A stretch of 64,000 nt of DNA from Candidatus Limnocylindria bacterium (GTDB taxonomy: Bacteria; Chloroflexota; Limnocylindria; Limnocylindrales; CSP1-4). How positions within the stretch are numbered: the first letter of the stretch is position 1; the number at the start of each line of letters is the position of its first letter. The stretch covers positions 10,460 to 74,459 of the forward strand of contig DATKBB010000021.1 of assembly GCA_035514295.1 (NCBI GenBank), written 5' to 3'. Under the pieces are notes generated by a model. The model saw only the letters and a list, made by a program, of their open reading frames with translations, did not search any database and was not told the DNA's origin. This document shows, one piece after another, positions 1,139-64,000 of the stretch. The position numbers were made by a program, and so were the translations under genes.

Positions 1139-1417
1139 CTACGGACGCCGGGCGCGCGGGTCGCTCACCTGACGCAATGGTGTCCACCGGCATGAGTCAA
1201 CAAGGCTCACACGATCGGTGCCAGGGGCCCGGAAAGAAATGAGCGCAGCCTGGTGCAGCGTTTCCTCGACCGGCTGGAAGTCAATGAGTGGCAGGAAGGC
1301 GTCAATCAGCCGCTCGACGGCCGCCCATCCTAGCCGGCGACCGATCAGCCCGGCCGAGCCCTTGCTTCTTCCCCGAACCTGCGCAACAAGGTACGCCATG
1401 ACCGGCACGGCAATCAC
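1139..1417 (-). CDS. hypothetical protein (92 aa)
   Basis: Its GTG at 1417 overlaps the MFS stop (GTGA, 1414-1417) and it ends 10 nt before the next gene, so it fits the operon packing. No family recognised. Confidence 0.4.
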   Translation of the reverse strand: MIAVPVMAYLVAQVRGRSKGSAGLIGRRLGWAAVERLIDAFLPLIDFQPVEETLHQAALISFRAPGTDRVSLVDSCRWTPLRQVSDPRARRP

Positions 1418-2622
1418 AGCGGCACAGTAGGCGGTACGCGAAGGTGTGAGCGGCGGAGTGACGGATCGGCCAGGGTCAGCATGCCGGCGATCGCCACGCC
1501 GCCCAGGCCCACGATGAGCGCTGCCTCAAAGCCGAACCTTTCTACGATGGGCGCGCCACCAATCGCACCCAGTGCGTTCGCGCCGCCGCTTATCACCGAG
1601 AAAAGCGCGAAGGCGCTGCCCCGGTCGGCGGTCGAGCTGCGCACGGTTAGCTCGAGCAGCATCGGTGACAGGATCAGTCCCGCCGACAGACCGGCCAAAA
1701 GCCCACCACCTACCAAAGTAGCGACTGTCGGTGTGAGCAGCAGCAATGCGATCGAGCCGACGCTGACGAGGAGCCCGGCGCCGACTAGCAGCCGCGCCTC
1801 GTGGCGATCGGCCAGCCAGCCGGTCGGGATGCGGGAGATGAGCACCGAGGCGCCGTAGCCAATGAAGAAGAAAGCCGAGCTTGTGCCAGCAAGCTCCGCT
1901 CTTGGCGGCAGATAGGTCAGCACGACACCCCAGTACGCAACGGCAAAGAGGGTGATCGCCAGCGGCACGGCCCACGCGCGCCGGAAGGCCAGACCCCACT
2001 GACGGCGGGCGGGCGACGCGATCACCATCGACGAGGAGCCGGCGCGCCCGGAGGCGAGAGTCGGCCGCGGTAGCCGGTTGGCGAGTAGCGCACCCAATAG
2101 GATCACGAGCGCAGCCGAGACGGCCACTCCGCGGAAGGAGCTCACCTCGAGGATGAACAACGAGGCCGCCGGGAGAACGGCCAAGGTCAGGTTCTGGGCG
2201 AGAAGCACGACCGACAACCAGAAGCCGCGCTGCGCCGCGTCGACGACCAAAGGCACCAACGTCAGAACGGCCGGAACGACGACCGCGAAGCCGATGCCTT
2301 GGAGCACTCGCGCAGTGAACAGGCCCAAGATCGGCTCGCTCGGGTCGAGCTCCGAGATGCCCAGCAGGAGTGTCGCAAGCAGGTAAGCCGCGACACCGAC
2401 GAGGAGCAGTCGGTAGGGCCCTGCACGGTCGATCAGTGCGCCAATCACCGGCGCGGCAAACATTTGGACCGTGAAGGCGGTCCCCACGATTAAGCCGATC
2501 TGGCCGTTGCTGTACGCCGCCGCGGCCAGCGCCACCGGCAGCGCGCCGGTGAAGCCGTGGAACCCGGCCTGGATTGCGAAGACAGCCGGTAGGAGCCTGA
2601 GCAGCGATCGGCTGTCGCTCAC
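1414..2622 (-). CDS. MFS transporter
   Basis: 402 aa, about 12 hydrophobic segments, Gly/Ala/Leu-rich. GTG start overlaps the stop of the upstream aldehyde dehydrogenase (GTGA, 2619-2622). Confidence 0.85.
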   Translation of the reverse strand: MSDSRSLLRLLPAVFAIQAGFHGFTGALPVALAAAAYSNGQIGLIVGTAFTVQMFAAPVIGALIDRAGPYRLLLVGVAAYLLATLLLGISELDPSEPILGLFTARVLQGIGFAVVVPAVLTLVPLVVDAAQRGFWLSVVLLAQNLTLAVLPAASLFILEVSSFRGVAVSAALVILLGALLANRLPRPTLASGRAGSSSMVIASPARRQWGLAFRRAWAVPLAITLFAVAYWGVVLTYLPPRAELAGTSSAFFFIGYGASVLISRIPTGWLADRHEARLLVGAGLLVSVGSIALLLLTPTVATLVGGGLLAGLSAGLILSPMLLELTVRSSTADRGSAFALFSVISGGANALGAIGGAPIVERFGFEAALIVGLGGVAIAGMLTLADPSLRRSHLRVPPTVPL

Positions 2623-4004
2623 CCTCGTCCGTGGATGAGCATCGTCCGAGTCCTGGTGTAGAACTCGCGCGCCGCGCGGCCCTGCTCACGTGGCCCGTAG
2701 CCCGACGCCTTGTCGCCACCGAATGGCGTGTAGTGCTCAACGCCGGTGGTTGGCGCGTTGACCCGCTGGATACCGGCGTCAAGCCGCTCGGCGAGCTGGC
2801 GGGCACGCTCAATGTCGGTCGAGAAGACACTCCCCGCAAGGCCGAAGCGGGTCGAGTTGGCCGCAGCAAGCGCCTGCTCGTCCGAGTCGGCGACCAGTAC
2901 CGCGACTGCCGGTCCGAAGGTCTCCTCCTGGGTGAACCGGTCGGAGGGGTCATCGACCTCGAGGATGGCCGGCTCGATGAACCAGCCCTCGCCGTCGGGG
3001 CGGTTGCCGCCGCTGAGCAGCCGCGCGCCGCGCGAGCGCGCGTCGGCGATCGCCTCTTCAACCATCGTGCGAGCGCCCTCGTTGATCAGCGGCCCGAGGT
3101 CCGCCGTCTCGTCGTCAGGCATCCCCACGCGCACCGCCCGGACGGCGTCGACGAGCAGCGGTACGAACGCCGGCGCGATGGCCGACGAGACGATCACCCG
3201 CCGCGTGGCGGTGCATTTCTGGCCGGCGAACTCCATCGCAGCCTTGGCGATAGTCGTCGCGGCGTGCAGCTGGTCGGCGTCGTCCAGCACGATCGAGGGG
3301 TTCTGGCCGCCCATCTCCGCCTGCACCGGCGCGCCGCGTGAGGCCACGCGACTGACTATCGCGCTGCCAACCGGCACCGAGCCCGTGAACGTGACCGCCG
3401 CGATGCGCGGGTCGTCCAGAATCGGATCGAGCGCGTCGGGCGCAGCCGGCACCAGCTCGAGCACGCCCGGCGGCAGCACCTCGCCGGCGGCCTCGGCCAG
3501 CAGATGGCCGATCGCCAGCGCGCTCGACGAGGGCTTGAACAGAACCGTGTTGCCGTAGGCCAACGCGGGCGCAATCTTCCAAGCCGGGATGGCCACGGGG
3601 AAGTTCCACGGGCAGATGGCGGCGACCACGCCAAGCGGCCGGCGGTGTACGCGCAGCTCGACATCGCGGCCGGCGCTCGGGAAGATCTCGCCGATCGGGT
3701 CGAAAGGGGCCTGCGCGTAGTAGCGCACGATGGCGACCGCCCGGCCAACCTCGGCGCGGCTCTCGCGCGGCGGCTTGCCCACCTCGCGAATGAGCAACCC
3801 AACCAGCTGCGGCGCGCGCCGGGCGATCGCCTCGGCCCAGCCGTGGAGTGCGGTCGCGCGGACCGCCGCGTCGGCGGCCCAGCCCGGGCCTGCTTCTTGG
3901 GCGGCGGCAATGCGCGCCACCACGGCGGCCCTGTCGAGCAGGCCGAACGTGCCAACGATTCGCTCCGGCCGAGCCGGCTCGCGCACGACGACGAGATCGG
4001 CCAC
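2619..4004 (-). CDS. aldehyde dehydrogenase family protein
   Basis: ALDH hallmarks PWNFP, FTGS...G, catalytic EMGGQNP and GQKCTA. GTG at 4004 is preceded by GAGAGGAAGG. Confidence 0.9.
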   Translation of the reverse strand: MADLVVVREPARPERIVGTFGLLDRAAVVARIAAAQEAGPGWAADAAVRATALHGWAEAIARRAPQLVGLLIREVGKPPRESRAEVGRAVAIVRYYAQAPFDPIGEIFPSAGRDVELRVHRRPLGVVAAICPWNFPVAIPAWKIAPALAYGNTVLFKPSSSALAIGHLLAEAAGEVLPPGVLELVPAAPDALDPILDDPRIAAVTFTGSVPVGSAIVSRVASRGAPVQAEMGGQNPSIVLDDADQLHAATTIAKAAMEFAGQKCTATRRVIVSSAIAPAFVPLLVDAVRAVRVGMPDDETADLGPLINEGARTMVEEAIADARSRGARLLSGGNRPDGEGWFIEPAILEVDDPSDRFTQEETFGPAVAVLVADSDEQALAAANSTRFGLAGSVFSTDIERARQLAERLDAGIQRVNAPTTGVEHYTPFGGDKASGYGPREQGRAAREFYTRTRTMLIHGRG

Positions 4005-4017
4005 GGCTGCCTTCCTC

Positions 4018-5376
4018 TCAGGCGGTGCGAGTGGAGGGATCAGCGGGGCGACGCGTGTGCCAGTCAGTCGCCTGCTCGTACGAGCGGGCGACCGTCAACA
4101 CCAGCGCATCGGCGCCGTAGGCACCGGCGACCTGCATGCCGATCGGCATGCCCGCGCCGTCGAAGCCGGCGGGCACGGACACGGCCGCGCCGCCGACGAT
4201 GTTGTGGATGCCGGTGAAGGGCGTCCGATGAGGAGGGTTGCGCTCGAAGTCGACCTTTTTCGGCGCGACCTGGAGGACGACCGGCGAGACCAGCACGTCG
4301 ACCGACCGATATAGCTCATCGAGCTGCGCAATGACCACGTCGCGCATGCGCAGGGCGTTGACGTAGTCGACGCCAGTGTACGCCAGGCCGGCCGACAGCC
4401 GCTCGCGTGCGCTGACGCCGAACTCGTCCGGCCGGTCGGCCAATGCGGGCAGATGGTTGGCCAGGCCCTCCGAGCCGATGATCGCCAGCAGCGTCGCCTC
4501 GGTCAGTGCCAGCTCGGGCAGCTCGACGGCCTGTAGCCTGGCGCCAAGGCTGCGCAGCACCGACGTGGCTTCGTCAAAGGCGCGGCCGATCGCCGGCTCC
4601 ATGTCGGTGCTGTCGATCAGGGCCTGGGGCGCGCCGATGCGCAGCCCGGCGATCGAATCGCCCAGCTCGACCGAGCTGCCGCTGGCGCCGGCGAGCAGCG
4701 CCGCAACGTCGTCCGCTGTCCGGCCCAGCGGACCGACGTGGTCAAGCGTCCACGACAGGGCCAGCACCCCACGCCGGCTGATCAGGTCGTAGGTCGGCTT
4801 CATGCCTACGACGCCGCAGTACGACGCCGGGCCGCGGATCGAGCCGCCCGTGTCCGTGCCATAGCTGCCGGCACACAGGCCGGTCAGCACCGCCACCGCC
4901 GAGCCGGAGCTCGAGCCGCCGGGAATGCGCTCGAGGTCCCACGGGTTGCGCGCCGGGACGGGCCATTCACCCGGCATCGGCAGGCCCATGCCCAGCTCGT
5001 AGAGGTTGTTCTTGCCGATGATCACCGCGCCGCCGGCGCGCAACTGGGCGACGATGTCGCTGTCGGCCGTGGCGATCACGTCGCGGTGATGCAGCGAGCC
5101 GCCGGTCGTCGCGACCCCTGCGACATCGATCAGGTCCTTGAGCGCAATCGGTATCCCGTCGAGTGGCCCGCGCCGACGGCCGGCGAAAAGCTCCTGCTCG
5201 GCACGCCGAGCCTCGTCGAGTGCCGAGTCGGCCAGCACGCTGATGTAGCTGAGCAGCTCCCCGTCCAGAGCGGCGATGCGATCGAGGGTCGCCTGCGTCA
5301 CCTCGACCGGCGACGCGCGCCGCTCATCGTATGCAGCCGACAGCCAGCCGATCGACCGCTGGGTCAGCTCGCTCAT
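4018..5376 (-). CDS. amidase (amidase-signature family, GatA/AtzE-like)
   Basis: AS-signature GGSSSGSAVAV...GTDTGGSIRGPAS. The first 117 aa of track ORF 4018..5727 are Arg-rich read-through. ATG at 5376 (MSELTQRSIGW...) overlaps the stop of the small upstream ORF (ATGA). Confidence 0.9.
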   Translation of the reverse strand: MSELTQRSIGWLSAAYDERRASPVEVTQATLDRIAALDGELLSYISVLADSALDEARRAEQELFAGRRRGPLDGIPIALKDLIDVAGVATTGGSLHHRDVIATADSDIVAQLRAGGAVIIGKNNLYELGMGLPMPGEWPVPARNPWDLERIPGGSSSGSAVAVLTGLCAGSYGTDTGGSIRGPASYCGVVGMKPTYDLISRRGVLALSWTLDHVGPLGRTADDVAALLAGASGSSVELGDSIAGLRIGAPQALIDSTDMEPAIGRAFDEATSVLRSLGARLQAVELPELALTEATLLAIIGSEGLANHLPALADRPDEFGVSARERLSAGLAYTGVDYVNALRMRDVVIAQLDELYRSVDVLVSPVVLQVAPKKVDFERNPPHRTPFTGIHNIVGGAAVSVPAGFDGAGMPIGMQVAGAYGADALVLTVARSYEQATDWHTRRPADPSTRTA

Positions 5377-5621
5377 CTCGAGCGCGAAGGAGTGGCGCGT
5401 GGGGGGATGGCCCGCAAGGGCTGGCCGCTCACCTCGCGCGCCAGCGTGGCCGTCGTTTGTTGGCTGCGTGCGACGAACGTGCCCACCTTGTCCCAATCGG
5501 TGTGCTCGGTGCGCATGCCGTAGACGGCCGCGCGAACAAGCACACGTTTGGTGATCGCAGCGGGGTCGGCCTCCGGAGGCGTGGCCGGCGTACTGGGCGG
5601 TGATGAGTTGCGCTCGGCCAT
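5373..5621 (-). CDS. small AtzG-like / DUF4089-like protein (putative amidase partner subunit)
   Basis: 82-aa ORF. Its ATG shares one base with the ALDH stop (TGATG at 5619-5623) and its TGA overlaps the amidase ATG (ATGA at 5373-5376). Core AAITKRVLVRAAVYGMRTEHTDWDKVGTFVARSQQTTATLAREV fits the helical pattern of GatC/AtzG-like partners. Confidence 0.5.
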   Translation of the reverse strand: MAERNSSPPSTPATPPEADPAAITKRVLVRAAVYGMRTEHTDWDKVGTFVARSQQTTATLAREVSGQPLRAIPPRATPSRSR

Positions 5622-7114
5622 CAGGCAAGTGCTGCGACGGTCTTGCGACGGGTGAAGAAGTCGACCGCGCCCGGCCCCTGCTCGCGGATGCCGTAACCCG
5701 ACGCCTTGGTGCCGCCGAATGGCGCATGGGCCTCCCAGCCGGCGCTGGTCACGTTGACTCCGGCACAGCCCACGTCGGCGCGGCGGACAAACTCGCCGGC
5801 CAGCTCCAGGCTGGCCGTGTGGATGACCGCAGCCAGGCCGTACGGCGTGCCATTGGTGATCGCGAGCGCCTGCTGAAACGTGTCACAGGCGAGCACGGCG
5901 AGCACCGGCCCGAAGATCTCCTCCTGTGCGACCGCCATGGCCGGCTCGACGTCGGCGAAGATCGTCGGCTCGAAGAAGTAACCCTCCTCGAAGCCCGGCG
6001 GGTTGCCGCGCGAGCCGCCGAACAGCAGCCGGGCGCCGTCGCGCAGCGCACGCTCGACGTAGTGTTCGCTCTTGGCCAGCGCGGCCTCATCGACGAGCGG
6101 GCCCATGAAGGTGTCCTCGGCGAGGGGGTCACCGACCTGGACTGACGTGGCCGCCTCGACCAGCGCCTCGGTGAAGCGGGGCAGGATGTGCCGCTGGACG
6201 ATGACCCGGCTGGTCGAGGTGCACTTCTGGCCGGCGGAGCGATAAGCGCCGTCGACGATCAGCGCGACGGCCCGCGCAAGGTTGGCGTCGTCCCAGACGA
6301 CGACCGCGTTCTTGCCGCCCATCTCGGCCTGGACGCCGGCACCGCGCGCACTGGCCGCCGCGACCGTCCGCCAGCCGACCTCGGTTGAGCCAGTGAAAGA
6401 GATCGCGGCCACCCGCCGGTCGGCGACGAGCGCCTGCCCGACTGCCTCGCCGTCGCCGGTCACGAGGTTGACCGCGCCCTCGGGCACGCCCGCCTCTAAC
6501 AGCAGCTCGACGATGCGTGCCGCCACTGCCGGTGCGCGCGACGCTGGCTTGAGCACGGCGCTGTTGCCGCAGGCCAGCGCCGCAGACAGCTTCTTGGTCG
6601 GGATCGAGATCGGGAAGTTCCACGGCGTGATCAAGCCAAGGACGCCGAGCGGCTCGCGCAGGGTTAGCAGGCTGACCCTGTCGCGAACCGAGCCGCCCAC
6701 CTCGCCGCCAAGGCGCGTGGCTTCGCCACCGAAGTACTCCAGGAAGGCGATCGCGGCACCAACCTCACCGCGTGCCTCGCCGATCGGCTTACCCATCTCG
6801 CGGCTGGCAAGCTGCGCGATCGACTCGGCCTGCTCGCGCATCAGCCGCCCGGCGGCGAAGAGGATCTCGGCGCGCCGCATGGGTGAGACGGCGGCCCAGT
6901 TGGGAGCGGCCTCGGCTGCGGCGGCAACCGCCGCCTCGACCTCGTCAGACCCGCATGCCGCGACCATGGCGACGAGCTCGCTCGGGCGAGCCGGGTTGAC
7001 GTCGTCGAAGGTGCCGCCAGAGCCACGTTCGCTGGTCGAGCCACCGATCCTGCTCGCGACTTTGAGGGGCTCGGCGTTGGCGGCAGGCTCGCGGGCGGCG
7101 ACGGGAGTGGTCAC
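5621..7114 (-). CDS. aldehyde dehydrogenase family protein
   Basis: PWNFP, FTGSTEVG, EMGGKNA and GQKCTS motifs. No ATG lies near the conserved N-terminus. GTG at 7114 (VTTPVAAREP...) overlaps the IclR stop (GTGA, 7111-7114) and gives about 497 aa, a typical ALDH length. Confidence 0.9.
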   Translation of the reverse strand: MTTPVAAREPAANAEPLKVASRIGGSTSERGSGGTFDDVNPARPSELVAMVAACGSDEVEAAVAAAAEAAPNWAAVSPMRRAEILFAAGRLMREQAESIAQLASREMGKPIGEARGEVGAAIAFLEYFGGEATRLGGEVGGSVRDRVSLLTLREPLGVLGLITPWNFPISIPTKKLSAALACGNSAVLKPASRAPAVAARIVELLLEAGVPEGAVNLVTGDGEAVGQALVADRRVAAISFTGSTEVGWRTVAAASARGAGVQAEMGGKNAVVVWDDANLARAVALIVDGAYRSAGQKCTSTSRVIVQRHILPRFTEALVEAATSVQVGDPLAEDTFMGPLVDEAALAKSEHYVERALRDGARLLFGGSRGNPPGFEEGYFFEPTIFADVEPAMAVAQEEIFGPVLAVLACDTFQQALAITNGTPYGLAAVIHTASLELAGEFVRRADVGCAGVNVTSAGWEAHAPFGGTKASGYGIREQGPGAVDFFTRRKTVAALA

Positions 7115-59028: not shown

Positions 59029-59889
59029 ATGAGCTTTTCCATCACCGAGGGCGGCCCGTCGCCCAGCGTCAACGCAACACGCCTCAAGCGCCAGCTCGTC
59101 GAGCAGGCCATCGCCGCGGCCACCGCCGCCGACTGGCAGGCTGCCGCCGACCTCAACCGGCGCATCCTGGAGCTGGGCCCAGACGGCGAGGCTGAGAACC
59201 GGCTGGCCAAGTCGCTGTGGGAGCTGGGCGAGCTCGCCTCGGCGCGGGAGCACTACCAGGCCGCACTCGCCCTGGATCCCACCAACCGCATCGCCGAGCG
59301 CAACATCAACCGCCTGCGCATGCTGCTCGCCGAGGCCGGCAAGAAGACCGTCGCCGCCCAGCCCGGCAGCAAGGCGCCGGTCAGCATCTTCGTCGAGGAG
59401 ACCGGCAAGACCGGCTTTGCCCACCTCGTCGACCTGGCCAGCCCCAAGCAGCTGGCCCAGGTCAATCCCGGCGACGCGGTCGACCTCAAGCCGGAAGGAC
59501 CACGCCTGAAGGCGTGGTCGAACGGCGTGGAGATCGGTGTGGTCGAGCCGCGCGTCGCGGCCCGCCTGCTCAAACTGATCGCCGAGGGCAACAAGTACGC
59601 CGCCGGCGTGACCAGCCTGGGTGAGCGCGACGTGCGCATCATCATCCGCGAGGTTTACCAGGACCCGGCCAATTACGGCAAGGTTTCCTTCCCCACGGCG
59701 GCCAAGGTCAGTGACATGCGTCCCTACACCAAGGGCACGCTCGTGCGCGAGGAAATGGAGCTGGAGGAGGATCTCGAGCTCGACGAAGAGGACGACGAGA
59801 TCGAGGACATCGGCCGCATCCTGCCCGCCGAGGTCACCGAGGACGAAGCCTTCGTCGACGAGTCCGACGAGGAGGAAGAGGAGGACTAG
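59029..59889 (+). CDS. TPR-containing protein with a central beta-rich domain and a poly-acidic C-terminal tail
   Basis: The N-terminal roughly 100 aa are TPR-like (W..A..LN.RILELGPD...AE..LAKSLWELGEL..A.EHYQAALALDP.N..A). The tail is EEMELEEDLELDEEDDEIEDIG...EDEAFVDESDEEEEED. Confidence 0.6.
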   Translation: MSFSITEGGPSPSVNATRLKRQLVEQAIAAATAADWQAAADLNRRILELGPDGEAENRLAKSLWELGELASAREHYQAALALDPTNRIAERNINRLRMLLAEAGKKTVAAQPGSKAPVSIFVEETGKTGFAHLVDLASPKQLAQVNPGDAVDLKPEGPRLKAWSNGVEIGVVEPRVAARLLKLIAEGNKYAAGVTSLGERDVRIIIREVYQDPANYGKVSFPTAAKVSDMRPYTKGTLVREEMELEEDLELDEEDDEIEDIGRILPAEVTEDEAFVDESDEEEEED

Positions 59890-59960: not shown

Positions 59961-62825
59961 GTGTCGGACCCGCTCTCTTCGCTCATCAGGCAGAGCTCCA
60001 CTCCGCTGCTGCCTGCCTTCGAGCGGCTGGCCCCCCCGCCGCCCGAGAACCTGATCGCCGCCGAGCTGACCGCCCGCACGACGGCCGGCGACGTGGTGCT
60101 GGACCTGCACGCCCGCGGCGGCTGGATCGCGCGCAGTGCGATCAGTGCGCTACGGCGCATCTACACCTGCGAATCGTCGGCACTGACCAAGCTGCAGGCC
60201 GAGGTCCTCCTGCGGCCGCCCGACCTGCGCCACTTCGACGCCGCCATTGCCACGCTTGCCGCTCACCCGCGCGGCGACGTAGCCCTGCGCGATGCCCTCA
60301 GTGAGCCGTTCGCCTCGCGCTGCACGGTCTGCGGCCGCCCGATCGTCGTGGACGAGTTCATCTGGGAGGGTGACGCGGCGGCACCGGCGCGCAAGGTCTA
60401 CCGCTGCGCTTACTGCCGCCTCCAATCGCGCGGGCCGGAGCAGCGCAACGTGCCGGTGGACGAGGAGGACGTTGAGCGGGCGACCTCGATGGAGACCCCC
60501 GAGCGCGTGCTGATTGCCCTGCGCGGCCGCTTTCCCGTGCGCGAGGCAGGCCGCGAGCTGCCCGATGAGCTGCTCAACCTCTACACGCCGCGTACGCTGG
60601 TGGCCCTCGAGGCGATCATCGCCCGGCTGGAGAACGACCTGCGCGCGGCGCCTCTCACGGCCGCCCTGCGTCTGGGCCTGGTCTCGAGCATCCTGCCCAC
60701 CAGCAAGTTGAACAGCTATCCCGGCCGGGTGGCGGCGCTGCGCATCCAGCACGGCCGAGTCCGTCCGCCAGGCGAGCGGCAGTGGCGCGAGCGCAACCCG
60801 TGGCTGGTCTTCGAAGAAGGCTGCCGGCAGGTACGGTCTTTCGTGCAACGCGTCGAGTCCAACGCGGCCAGCTTCCAGCCGCGCCTTGGCGAGGAGCTCG
60901 AGGCGCTCATCGACGGCAGCGCCAACATGGTCCTGCGCAGCGGCAGCGCGGCCCTGCCGGCCAATCGGCCCTTCATCTCCGAGCGGCGCACGACCCAGTT
61001 CGGACGGCCCGACCCGCGCGGGCGCGTGCGCCTGGTGCTGACCCAGCCGCCGATCCGCTGGACGACCGAGAACCTCTCCTTCGCCTACCTGGCCAGCTCG
61101 CTGGCGCTGGGCCCCGAAGCGGCGGCCGAGCTGCCCCTGGAGTGGCTCCTCGGCACGCCGCCGCGCAACGAGCGCGGCCGTGAGGCAACCGCCCTGCGCC
61201 GCTCGCTGCTGGCCGTCGAGCCCGTGCTCTCGCCCGACGCCTCGGCCGTCGTGCTGCTCGATCGGGGCGGGCCGGAGGGGTTGGTGGCCGGCGTGCTGGG
61301 CGGCGTGGGCGCCGGCTTCCGCCTGACCTCGGCCCTTCTGAGCGAGGTGGGCGAGGAGATGGAGGGCGTGCTGGAGTTCAGCCTGCGCCCGCCGACGCAG
61401 GACCAGGCGGCCGAGCATCCCGAGCTGGCCGGCTTGACGCCCGCCGCCGTCGACGGTCCGTTCGAGCTGGCCGATGTCGAGCGCGCCGTCCGGGAAGTTG
61501 CCGTGGCCGTGCTCAAGGCGCGCGGCGAGCCGGCCCGTTTCGAGCGGCTCCTGGGCGAGGTTCTCATCGGGCTGGACCGCCTGGGCCACCTGCGCCGGCT
61601 GGTGGGCACGGAGACCTTCAGCCAGACCGAGGCACGGGTGGTCGCCGAGCTCGCCCAAGCGGAGGCCGGCCCAGGTCGGCCGCCGGCGGAGACCCCGACC
61701 GAAGGCGTGGCGGATGCCGAGGCGGATTCGGGCGCGGAACCCGAGGCGGATTCGGACGCGGAACCGGAGGTGGACACGCAACCTGCGGGACGGGCGCGCC
61801 GCTGGCTCTTCGAGCAAGCCCAGCAGGCTGGCGCGCCGCCCGGCATGGACGCCGACCCGGACGCCTCTCCGGAGGGGGAGGAGGAGCACACGCCGGCCTG
61901 GGCGCTGGGCTCGGGCTCGGCCACCGATCACGTCAAGCTGTTCATGGAGCTGGTCATGTCAGAGCTGCGCCGCCCGGACCACCCGCGCCTCACCGAGCTT
62001 GAACCGGGTCGCTGGTGGCTGCGCGACCAGCAGGACCTGGAGGAGGCGCGCCCGCCTCTCTCCGACCGTATCGAGTGGGCCATCTTCGGGCTTCTCTCGA
62101 CGGCGCGCAGCATCGACGAGAACGCCTTCTTCGACCGCGTCGCGCGCATGTTCCGCGGTCACGACGCGCCCGACGAAGAGCTCGTGCGGGCCATCCTGGA
62201 GAGCTATCGCGATCCCGAGGCGACGGAAGGATTGCTCAGCCCGCGCGATGACCTGGCCGGCCGCCATGCCGAGCACGGCACGCTGGTGGGCATGCTGGTC
62301 GAGTACGGACACCGGCTGGGCCTGCGCTGCTGGGCCGCGCCCCGCGAACAACGGCGCGCCTACCGCGAGGGCACGGTGGGCGACCTGCTGACCGAGGAAG
62401 AGCAGCGCGTCTACCTGCCGCTGGTCGTGCCCGGTGAGCCCGAGACGCTGGAGACCACGGACTGCATCTGGTACCTGCGCGGCCGCGCGGCGTTCCTCTT
62501 CGAAGTGGAGTGGACGGCGATGGTCAGCGACGTGCTGCTGCGGCGCGGGCCGCGCATCCCCACCTCAGATTCGCTCGTCCGTTTCCTGGTAGTACCGCCC
62601 GAGAGAGCCGAGCTGCTGCGCCTCAAGCTGGCCCGTTCGCCGCTGCTGCGCGAGGCCCTCGACAACGACAACTGGCATATTCTCAAGTCCGATCAGCTGC
62701 GCCGCCTGTTTGCGGCCGAGGAGGCCAGCCTCGACGCGCTGGGGCCTCTGCTGGGGCTCGATCCGGAGGTCGAGCGCCAGGCGGAGCAGCTCAACCTGTT
62801 CATGGACGAAGGAGCCCCCGCTTGA
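59961..62825 (+). CDS. large Zn-ribbon methyltransferase-like protein with degenerate catalytic motifs, an acidic repeat linker and a C-terminal endonuclease-like domain
   Basis: 954 aa, GTG start. VVLDLHARGGW sits where motif I (DPFxGxG) would be. Cys4 ribbon CTVCGRP...YRCAYC. LVLTQPPI sits where (D/N/S)PPY would be. C-terminus ...TDCIWYLRGRAAFLFEVEWT...RFLVVPPERAELL...NWHILKSDQLRRL. Confidence 0.65.
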   Translation: MSDPLSSLIRQSSTPLLPAFERLAPPPPENLIAAELTARTTAGDVVLDLHARGGWIARSAISALRRIYTCESSALTKLQAEVLLRPPDLRHFDAAIATLAAHPRGDVALRDALSEPFASRCTVCGRPIVVDEFIWEGDAAAPARKVYRCAYCRLQSRGPEQRNVPVDEEDVERATSMETPERVLIALRGRFPVREAGRELPDELLNLYTPRTLVALEAIIARLENDLRAAPLTAALRLGLVSSILPTSKLNSYPGRVAALRIQHGRVRPPGERQWRERNPWLVFEEGCRQVRSFVQRVESNAASFQPRLGEELEALIDGSANMVLRSGSAALPANRPFISERRTTQFGRPDPRGRVRLVLTQPPIRWTTENLSFAYLASSLALGPEAAAELPLEWLLGTPPRNERGREATALRRSLLAVEPVLSPDASAVVLLDRGGPEGLVAGVLGGVGAGFRLTSALLSEVGEEMEGVLEFSLRPPTQDQAAEHPELAGLTPAAVDGPFELADVERAVREVAVAVLKARGEPARFERLLGEVLIGLDRLGHLRRLVGTETFSQTEARVVAELAQAEAGPGRPPAETPTEGVADAEADSGAEPEADSDAEPEVDTQPAGRARRWLFEQAQQAGAPPGMDADPDASPEGEEEHTPAWALGSGSATDHVKLFMELVMSELRRPDHPRLTELEPGRWWLRDQQDLEEARPPLSDRIEWAIFGLLSTARSIDENAFFDRVARMFRGHDAPDEELVRAILESYRDPEATEGLLSPRDDLAGRHAEHGTLVGMLVEYGHRLGLRCWAAPREQRRAYREGTVGDLLTEEEQRVYLPLVVPGEPETLETTDCIWYLRGRAAFLFEVEWTAMVSDVLLRRGPRIPTSDSLVRFLVVPPERAELLRLKLARSPLLREALDNDNWHILKSDQLRRLFAAEEASLDALGPLLGLDPEVERQAEQLNLFMDEGAPA
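61720..61776 (+). repeat. 24-bp tandem repeat (about 2.3 copies) in the acidic linker of the 954-aa gene
   Basis: gaggcggattcgggcgcggaaccc / gaggcggattcggacgcggaaccg / gaggtggac encodes EADSGAEP-EADSDAEP-EVD. Confidence 0.8.
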
Positions 62826-64000
62826 CGGACACAGCCCTGACCAGCCCTGTGCGCGAGCTGGCCGACCGATTCTGGAGCTACTTCCTTGAGCGCCAGCCGA
62901 TCTACGCAACTGCGCTGGGTTACGAGCGCTACGACGACAGGCTGCCCGATCCTTCGCCGGACGGCCGCGCAGGCGAGGTCGCCGAGCTGCGCCGGCTGCT
63001 GGACGACGCGGCGGCCATCGAGCGCGACCCGCTCGACGTGGAAGACACGATCACCCTGGACATGCTGGAAGTGGTGGCCCGCATCCAGCTTCGCCAGCAC
63101 GAGCACGAAATCCACCACGTCGAGGCGATGGACGCGATGGCCGGCCCGCAGACGACGCCGGGCGACCTGTCGCGCTACCAGCGCGTGGACAGCCCGGAGC
63201 GGCTGGAGCGCCTGATCCGCCGGCTCGAGGGCTTCCCGGCCTATCTGGCCGCCCACCGGGCCAACCTCGAAGAGGGCCTGCGCGCGGGTCGCACGGCGGC
63301 GCGGCCGGTCGTCGCCCGCGTTCTGGAGCAGACGCGCCGGCTGGTCGAGACGCCGCTCGAGAGCGAGCCCTTGATCGCGGCCCATCCGGAGCTGGACGGC
63401 GACGCGCGCCGGCGGCTGCAGGACGCCGTCGCCCACCACGTCAGGCCCGCCCTGACCGACTACCTCGCCGCCCTGGAGGCCTACGCGCCGGGCGCCCGCG
63501 AGGGCGACGGTCTGTGGGCGCTGCCCGGCGGCGTGGAACTGTACGAGACGCTCATCCTGGCCTCGACCACCATCGAGGCCAGGCCCCGCGAGCTGCACGA
63601 TTACGGCCTCGAACAGCTCGAGCGTATTCGCGAGGAGCAGGGGGTCGCGGCGCGCGAGCTTGGATTCGCCGACGTTGCGGGGATGCGCGCGGCGCTGGAC
63701 AGTGATCCATCGAACGCGACCAGCCGGCGCGAGGACATCGTCGAGCTGGCCGAGCGCCAGATCGAGCGGGCCAGTGCAGTCGCGCCGCGCTACTTCGGGC
63801 GGCTGCCCAGGGCCGCCGTTGTCGTGCGCCAAGTGGAGAGCTTCCAGGAAGCCGAGGCGCCGCCCGCCTTTTACCTGCCTCCACCGCCGGACGGATCACG
63901 GCCGGGCGTCTACTACGTCAACACTTACGAGCCGCAGGGACGCCCGCTGCATCGCCTGGCCGCGGCCACCTTCCACGAGGCGGTGCCCGGGCACCACTTC
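62822..64000 (+). CDS. DUF885 family protein, N-terminal about 390 aa; 3' end lies beyond the window
   Basis: Absent from the track because there is no stop in the window. TTG at 62822 overlaps the previous stop (TTGA). LTDTALTSPVRELADRFWSYFLERQPIYATALGYERYDDRLPD... ends at the family motif FHEAVPGHHF. Confidence 0.8.
   Translation, partial: MTDTALTSPVRELADRFWSYFLERQPIYATALGYERYDDRLPDPSPDGRAGEVAELRRLLDDAAAIERDPLDVEDTITLDMLEVVARIQLRQHEHEIHHVEAMDAMAGPQTTPGDLSRYQRVDSPERLERLIRRLEGFPAYLAAHRANLEEGLRAGRTAARPVVARVLEQTRRLVETPLESEPLIAAHPELDGDARRRLQDAVAHHVRPALTDYLAALEAYAPGAREGDGLWALPGGVELYETLILASTTIEARPRELHDYGLEQLERIREEQGVAARELGFADVAGMRAALDSDPSNATSRREDIVELAERQIERASAVAPRYFGRLPRAAVVVRQVESFQEAEAPPAFYLPPPPDGSRPGVYYVNTYEPQGRPLHRLAAATFHEAVPGHHF

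Follow-up and report, generated by a model that had tools for sequence, protein, structure and literature searches.

The DNA analyzed here is a stretch of 64,000 nt from contig DATKBB010000021.1 of a Candidatus Limnocylindria bacterium (below, the window). Close to its end lies a gene for a 954-residue protein in which a DNA methyltransferase-like half with degenerate catalytic motifs is joined to a restriction endonuclease-like domain and to a C-terminal peptide predicted to bind the β sliding clamp.

Results

The locus and the domain organization of the protein

The gene is the plus-strand open reading frame (ORF) 59961-62825, the longest frame at its site. It opens with a GTG codon that aligns with the ATG start of its homologues (MAEPLSSLIR vs VSDPLSSLIR). 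Its neighbors in the window encode a GGDEF protein, PolX (HHH_8/thumb/PHP), MgtE on the minus strand and a tetratricopeptide repeat (TPR) protein with an acidic tail, and a DUF885 gene follows downstream. The stop codon of the 954-residue frame overlaps the TTG that opens the DUF885 frame in the TTGA at 62822-62825.

Metagenome-assembled genomes (MAGs) of Chloroflexota and Candidatus Limnocylindria yielded more than 1100 full-length homologues (53-79% identity), and a profile search (E<=1e-3) of 1.84 billion cluster representatives (50%-identity clusters) returned 1506 members, down to ~25% identity. Because of these numbers and the conservation of its motif residues, the ORF is not a chance frame. 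A preliminary description of this DNA, made by eye, had listed several motifs, and these were found in the positions expected: DLHARGG at residues 48-54, ERNPW at 277-281, TQPPI at 361-365, D834-x13-E848-V-E850, and NWHILK at 904-909. The Cys4 ribbon of that description was likewise present (C121/C124/C149/C152), with its spacing corrected to 19, not 20, residues between CTVCGRP and YRCAYC.

With 23 close sequences as input, AlphaFold2 (AF2) gave a poor model (predicted local distance difference test score, pLDDT, of 61), and a Foldseek search with it was uninformative. The model used here was obtained from a diverse alignment and had a mean pLDDT of 86.9 and a predicted TM-score of 0.84. It comprises a complete class-I methyltransferase sheet, split after strand 2 by an α+β insert of ~240 residues that bears the Cys4 ribbon, followed by a helical domain, a disordered linker (residues 572-653), a helical/winged-helix-like region, a C-terminal α-β-β-β-α-β domain, and a flexible tail (Table 1). 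The Asp/Glu/Ala/Pro linker, and the 24-bp tandem repeat within it, had been noted before; the Tandem Repeats Finder (TRF) program placed the repeat at 61710-61774 with 2.7 copies and a score of 95, and the linker is disordered in the AF2 model. The repeat encodes an acidic octapeptide repeat, and linker length and sequence vary widely among homologues.

Table 1. Features of the 954-residue protein and its upstream neighbor; nucleotide positions are those of the window. TRD, target recognition domain.
Feature	Residues	Nucleotides	Strand	Basis
Whole gene, 954 aa (P0001)		59961..62825	+	ORF and full-length homologues
Methyltransferase core, part 1: motif X helix, β1 with degenerate motif I DLHARGG (48-54), β2 ending in motif II acid E71	24-85	60030..60215	+	Profile alignment to M.RsrI/TTHA0409; AF2 strands 45-51, 66-71; E/D71 in 36/46
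TRD-like α+β insert after core strand 2	86-322	60216..60926	+	AF2; 46/46 invariant residues; PglXI profile on distant members; insert position as in PMC12839542
Cys4 zinc ribbon, inside TRD-like insert	118-155	60312-60425	+	C121/C124/C149/C152
E277-x-N279-x-W281 (ERNPW) in TRD-like insert	277-281	60783-60803	+	Conservation; R190 and R211 also in insert
Methyltransferase core, part 2, β3-β7	323-475	60927..61385	+	AF2 strands 323-327, 356-361, 428-433, 454-463, 466-474
Degenerate motif IV TQPPI	361-365	61041-61055	+	Weak profile alignment LvltqPPv to LVVTSPPY; PP kept, positions 1 and 4 not
Helical domain, near-invariant R521-G-E523-P524	480-570	61398..61670	+	AF2; conservation
Disordered Asp/Glu/Ala/Pro linker, variable length, holds 24-bp repeat	571-655	61671..61925	+	pLDDT <50 (572-653); alignment gaps; TRF
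Helical/winged-helix-like region, invariant E705 and Y749	656-760	61926..62240	+	AF2 secondary structure; weak Stork_head winged-helix matches on homologues; conservation
NmeDI_C / PD-(D/E)xK-like domain	761-920	62241..62720	+	AF2; PF27126 on homologues; PADLOC REase_II PDLC03534; MmcB-like fold matches; conservation
Candidate site residues of NmeDI_C-like domain: E771, D834, E848, E850, R882, K889, K909		within 62241..62720	+	Conservation
QLNLF clamp-binding motif (predicted) in tail peptide ERQAEQLNLFMDE	943-947	62787..62801	+	Conservation in homologues; consensus QLxLF
TPR protein with poly-acidic C-terminal tail, 286 aa		59029..59889	+	Pfam TPR; constant upstream neighbor in class

The N-terminal half resembles Zn-ribbon DNA methyltransferases with a degenerate catalytic motif

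A profile of the family (60 sequences) was compared with the PDB. Over motifs X, I and II it matched β-class N6A/N4C DNA methyltransferases, namely TTHA0409 (E=1.6e-6), M.RsrI (9e-6) and MboIIA (1e-3), then PvuII and CcrM, and it weakly aligned LvltqPPv to the motif IV sequence LVVTSPPY. Distant members of the family matched the Pfam model N6_N4_Mtase with their N-terminus (P0181 scored 30 bits, above the gathering threshold of 26.7), the PADLOC models PglXI (E ~1e-10, over the insert and the core), MTase_II (E 1.5e-16) and mad2, and, weakly, the NCBIfam model DUF1156_antiphage. The best PDB matches of the full-length AF2 model in Foldseek were weak class-I methyltransferases (best E 0.014), and a Pandoravirus N4-cytosine DNA methylase was found in BFVD (E 1.2e-4). 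By these comparisons the N-terminal half is homologous to the PglXI/DUF1156-type Zn-ribbon DNA N6/N4 methyltransferases (COG1743), the ancestry that the preliminary description had proposed. In the PglXI and DUF1156_antiphage models, the counterpart of motif I falls at positions ~121-230. The N-terminal DUF1156 helical domain, or α+β extension before the core, is absent from the window protein, which begins ~25 residues before motif X and has no Pfam DUF1156 match.

The states of the motifs were then counted over 46 clean sequences. Invariant in all 46 were the four Cys of the ribbon, R190, R211, E277, W281, E705, Y749, W837, R882 and W905; N279 and D834 (45/46 each) and R521-G-E-P were near-invariant. 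In these sequences no part of the protein is more constrained than the recognition insert. Motif IV reads x-P-P-x throughout the family: the residue before the PP is Q, S, A, E, V or R, the residue after it is aromatic in a single sequence of the 46, and P364 is kept in 44. An acid is found at position 48 of motif I (D/E) in 43/46 and at position 71 of motif II (E/D) in 36/46. In Limnocylindria the loop of motif I is GRGG; the Anaerolineae-type members have DPFCR there and then bulky residues.

Methylase chemistry looks lost across the whole family, and not just in the window copy. The degeneracy of motif IV had been recognized earlier from this one sequence, with the reservation that the copy might merely be decaying; the family-wide state of the motif does not bear that reservation out. 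The label "site-specific DNA-methyltransferase", which PGAP gives to some distant members, is probably wrong.

The C-terminal domain resembles restriction endonucleases

The Pfam domain NmeDI_C (PF27126) is carried by the C-terminal ~300 residues of homologues; the assignment is precomputed on many of those at 53-79% identity and on C-terminal fragments, and was not scored on the window protein. Distant members matched positions ~170-296 of a 351-position PADLOC model of a type II restriction endonuclease (REase_II, PDLC03534), with E values of 8.7e-5 to 8e-4. In the AF2 model, the domain has the topology α(765-785)-β(789-792)-β(835-839)-β(843-849)-α(856-865)-β(872-878); D834 opens the second strand, and the third bears E848/E850. 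Among PDB sequences, a profile of this domain returned no match, and in a set of 5.8 billion proteins it returned only fragments of the family itself. The PF27126 and REase_II matches, the modeled topology and weak MmcB-like fold matches agree with the nuclease-like C-terminus of the preliminary description.

The acidic cluster is kept in most lineages, with E771 in 36/46, D834 in 45/46 and E/D850 in 37/46 sequences. This cluster of E771, D834 and E848/E850 would be compatible with metal-dependent cleavage.

A candidate clamp-binding peptide ends the protein

The bacterial β-clamp-binding consensus is QLxLF, typically at the C-terminus (PMC4549789). Of 121 close homologues, 116 carry the motif Q[LM]x[LM]F at the extreme C-terminus, in most cases one residue short of the end, and the other five end in QLAFF, QLSFF or QLALP. 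Relatives at ~25-30% identity end in QLSLF, QIPLF, QLPLL and similar sequences. In the window protein the tail with QLNLF has a pLDDT of ~50, as expected of a flexible or disordered segment. The preliminary description did not mention this conserved motif.

Only 3 of the 8590 stop-to-stop ORFs of at least 150 residues in the window's genome end with a clamp-type motif. One is the 954-residue protein, another is a family-4 uracil-DNA glycosylase (UDG4; ...ENQMELF), and the third is a probable chance case. The UDG4 gene lies on contig C30 at ~5379-7105 (locus L100), and its product closes with QMELF after a long Pro/Ala-rich stretch. The Pro/Ala-rich tails of orthologues from the whole class are not conserved, yet 20/22 end in Q[LM]xLF or QxTLF, and the class UDG4 is likely a clamp-binding UDG4 in bacteria. 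In a genome-reduced family (1.0-1.4 Mb), the canonical tail is lost in both UDG4 and the 954-residue-type protein. It seems that repair enzymes of the Limnocylindria lineage maintain such clamp-type tails.

The gene is a core gene of Limnocylindria

The gene was found in single copy in 148/151 genomes of the class Limnocylindria, and in 109/110 of the high-quality ones. In a sample of 301 genomes of the phylum, full-length copies were present in every one of the 35 class members and in another 34 genomes, which belong to seven families; the named records outside the class are MAGs of Anaerolineae, Anaerolineales, Caldilineae and Dehalococcoidales. The gene is retained even in the reduced genomes, of 1.0-1.4 Mb, of the same order.

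Related loci were searched for with a six-sequence alignment. Wherever a Limnocylindria locus extends far enough upstream (35 loci), the TPR/acidic-tail gene directly precedes the methylase-like gene, and its product is likely a partner of the 954-residue protein. Adjacency to PolX and DUF885 is kept only in nearer relatives, DUF885 also in the reduced-genome lineage and not in most of the class. The preliminary description was right about PolX, the TPR gene, DUF885 and the TTGA overlap as neighbors, and the TPR gene proved constant within the class when co-variation was checked; DUF885, by the same check, was lost from more distant loci. We reject a functional link of the protein with PolX or DUF885: both genes are lost in distant loci while the TPR gene stays, which leaves local synteny. 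Outside the class, the neighbors are unrelated housekeeping genes, none of them conserved, and no conserved operon partner was found when the Anaerolineae-type loci were searched for one.

At the loci examined we found no restriction-modification (R-M), BREX/BR or defence partners and no adjacent methyltransferase. The gene is vertically inherited as a core gene, and nothing suggests a defence island or mobility. The defence flavor that had been given to the protein therefore did not hold up against a single-copy core gene with housekeeping neighbors and no R-M or BREX partners.

Discussion

A proposed domesticated restriction-modification fusion

We put the probability at about one half that the 954-residue protein is a domesticated R-M fusion that now serves as a clamp-recruited DNA-recognition and nuclease factor in genome maintenance. 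Such a role is more likely for it than phage defence, and it is the conserved QLxLF tail that shifts the reading toward replication-coupled genome maintenance. From the sequences we infer that the ancestor would have been a single-chain R-M enzyme. Its methylase half would have kept the fold and the recognition insert (the Zn ribbon, R190, R211 and ExNxW) and have lost (D/N/S)PP(Y/F/W) and much of the glycine-rich S-adenosylmethionine (SAM) loop, so that it would most likely read DNA without methylating it. The disordered acidic linker would connect this half to the winged-helix-like region and the NmeDI_C-type PD-(D/E)xK-like domain, and the flexible QLxLF tail would dock the protein on the β sliding clamp and so bring it to replication forks or repair patches. 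There, the protein would recognize DNA and probably cut it, in Limnocylindria together with the upstream TPR/acidic-tail protein.

If this is correct, an R-M enzyme has been recruited to core chromosome biology, with its methylase turned into a DNA reader, its nuclease kept or repurposed, and a clamp peptide added. Among clamp clients the protein would represent a new type, and it would be a candidate for an unexplained genome-maintenance capacity in a class that is widespread in soil and freshwater and has no recognizable mismatch repair. No member of the family, which counts more than 1500 cluster representatives, has been characterized; a literature search found no paper describing it and none that mentions PF27126.

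Several observations weigh against this explanation. Scanned directly against Pfam, NCBIfam, PADLOC and PDB sequences, the window protein gave no match, and its homology comes to light only when family profiles or more distant members are used. The full-length model has no Foldseek match in the PDB below E=0.01, and its matches to MmcB-like PD-(D/E)xK proteins in BFVD are weak (probability 0.94, E 0.13). Limnocylindria retain the motif I and II acids and some of the glycines, and the protein may still bind SAM. The tail motif is short, and its binding to the β clamp is predicted from conservation. In the nuclease-like domain, the canonical (D/E)xK lysine is not at its usual position, where E or T is found, and E848 is variable; K889 or K909 might stand in for the lysine. 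Finally, the motif II acid and E850 are both gone from one clade (8 of the 46 sequences), which has kept the tail motif and the TRD residues, so catalysis may not be the conserved core function.

These last points are what a non-catalytic, clamp-associated DNA-binding or regulatory protein would predict. Both active sites would then be relics, and Zn-ribbon/TRD recognition of a DNA sequence or structure and clamp scaffolding would be retained in a replication-coupled regulator, a chromosome organizer or a recruiter, for example of the TPR partner. In keeping with this, the residues invariant in 46/46 sequences lie outside both catalytic pockets; they belong to the TRD-like insert, to the helical domain with RGEP and to structural Trp positions. 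Against it stands the retention of D834, E/D850 and E771, which exceeds what a relic site predicts at ~25% identity. We regard this alternative as tentative but the one to be taken most seriously, and the clamp-recruited recognition and nuclease factor remains preferred.

The mismatch-repair question

Known mismatch-repair (MMR) proteins were searched for in the class. MutS_I and MutL_C were each found in 0/31 class genomes and no genuine NucS was seen, with controls positive; MutS_V matches (~115 bits) occurred in 41/41 class genomes and are probably MutS2. No known post-replicative mismatch-repair system is recognizable in Limnocylindria.

The 954-residue protein, being universal in the class, could thus be imagined as the MMR replacement of Limnocylindria, a clamp-tethered nuclease for strand incision, and NucS likewise has a C-terminal clamp motif. 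This proposal has to face two findings. The protein has no recognizable mismatch-sensing module, nor did Pfam and NCBIfam scans detect NucS, MutS domain I or the MutL C-terminal domain in it. Of the 301 genomes in the phylum sample, 256 have MutS_I, and every one of the 34 carriers of the family outside the class is among them; the family is therefore not generally an MMR substitute and did not arise as one. An MMR-like role specific to Limnocylindria is possible but unsupported, and replacement of MMR within the class is in our estimate improbable.

An elaboration of the favored mechanism can be imagined for the same lineage. The dead methylase would read a base, a modification state or a lesion by base-flipping and direct the clamp-tethered nuclease to incise behind the fork; in Limnocylindria, without MutS1, MutL and NucS, it would, together with the TPR partner, supply the missing post-replicative error- or strand-discrimination step. 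We offer this as speculation and would not expect it to hold in full.

Catalytically active alternatives

An R-M or other anti-phage enzyme that is still active as a single chain (type IIG/IIC-like, or a solo component of BREX-like kind) and has unusual motifs would fit the R-M/BREX-like ancestry of both halves and the PGAP label on some distant members. A core, single-copy, syntenic gene without a defence island or partner genes, an unconserved motif IV, and the lack of a PADLOC match to the window protein make this very unlikely. That the protein is a still-active methyltransferase with a non-canonical motif IV, on DNA or another substrate, would fit the retained motif I and II acids, P364 and the GRGG loop of Limnocylindria, but is hardly credible when the positions flanking the PP are unconserved and non-aromatic and the G-loop is bulky in Anaerolineae-type members.

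Comparison with known systems

In the methylases of type-3 BREX and of the DUF1156 "BR" systems, the TRD insert follows core strand 2 (PMC12839542, a 2026 comparative study). The 954-residue protein shares the layout of PglXI/BrxXI (type-3 BREX) and the DUF1156-type enzymes (BR, Mad2-like; COG1743), with a class-I core in which motifs X, I and II come first, a Cys4-bearing TRD insert after strand 2, and motif IV later. Unlike them, it lacks the N-terminal extension, the D/N/S and the aromatic residue of motif IV, and BREX/BR partners; it has instead a restriction endonuclease-like C-terminal domain and a predicted clamp motif, and its gene is a core gene rather than island-borne. The β-class N6A/N4C enzymes (M.RsrI, TTHA0409, MboIIA, PvuII and CcrM) resemble it in the sequence of motifs X, I and II, whereas the motif order of the family is circularly permuted relative to theirs (I before IV) and its catalytic motif is degenerate.

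R.NmeDI is a 351-residue enzyme (PMC2095814). It shares with the family the NmeDI_C domain (PF27126; PDLC03534), which lies in the family's C-terminal ~300 residues. R.NmeDI stands alone, with a cognate methylase and proven cleavage, whereas in the 954-residue family the domain is fused to a seemingly dead methylase, no cognate methyltransferase is nearby, the canonical lysine is not evident, and the distribution is not patchy.

Like NucS/EndoMS, the MutL endonuclease and UDG4, the protein combines a nuclease or repair domain with a short C-terminal clamp-type peptide on a flexible tail. It differs from NucS and MutL in having no sequence homology to them and in a recognition module that would be a methylase derivative and not a mismatch sensor. 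METTL14, a pseudo-methyltransferase of eukaryotic mRNA, has EPPL in place of DPPW. In both proteins, the methyltransferase fold would be kept as a nucleic acid-binding scaffold after the loss of motif IV chemistry, but METTL14 is of unrelated lineage and substrate, and it has no nuclease or clamp module.

Additional observations

Among relatives, the TPR/acidic-tail protein (59029-59889) is better conserved than the 954-residue protein, at 80-93% identity. It has one or two TPR units; no known family matches its central β-rich domain or its poly-Asp/Glu tail. The DUF885 gene, at 62822-64000 of the window, has its apparent TTG start within the TTGA overlap.

Many public cluster representatives of the family are partly out-of-frame chimeras with Arg/Pro/Ala-rich junk, and they degrade alignments unless removed; these are P0152, P0153, P0159, P0165, P0169, P0176, P0184, P0187, P0189, P0193, P0221, P0225 and P0250. 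They presumably come from frameshifted MAG assemblies of high-GC DNA.

At one locus from the reduced genomes of 1.0-1.4 Mb (L098; G065:C4:85000-93500, minus strand), the order TPR, methylase-like, DUF885 is kept in ORFs 5442-6341, 3083-5416 and 1335-3062. The 777-residue copy there is strongly degenerate: the motif IV PP, W837, E850 and K909 are lost, and its tail reads QLDLTSL, 21 residues from the end.

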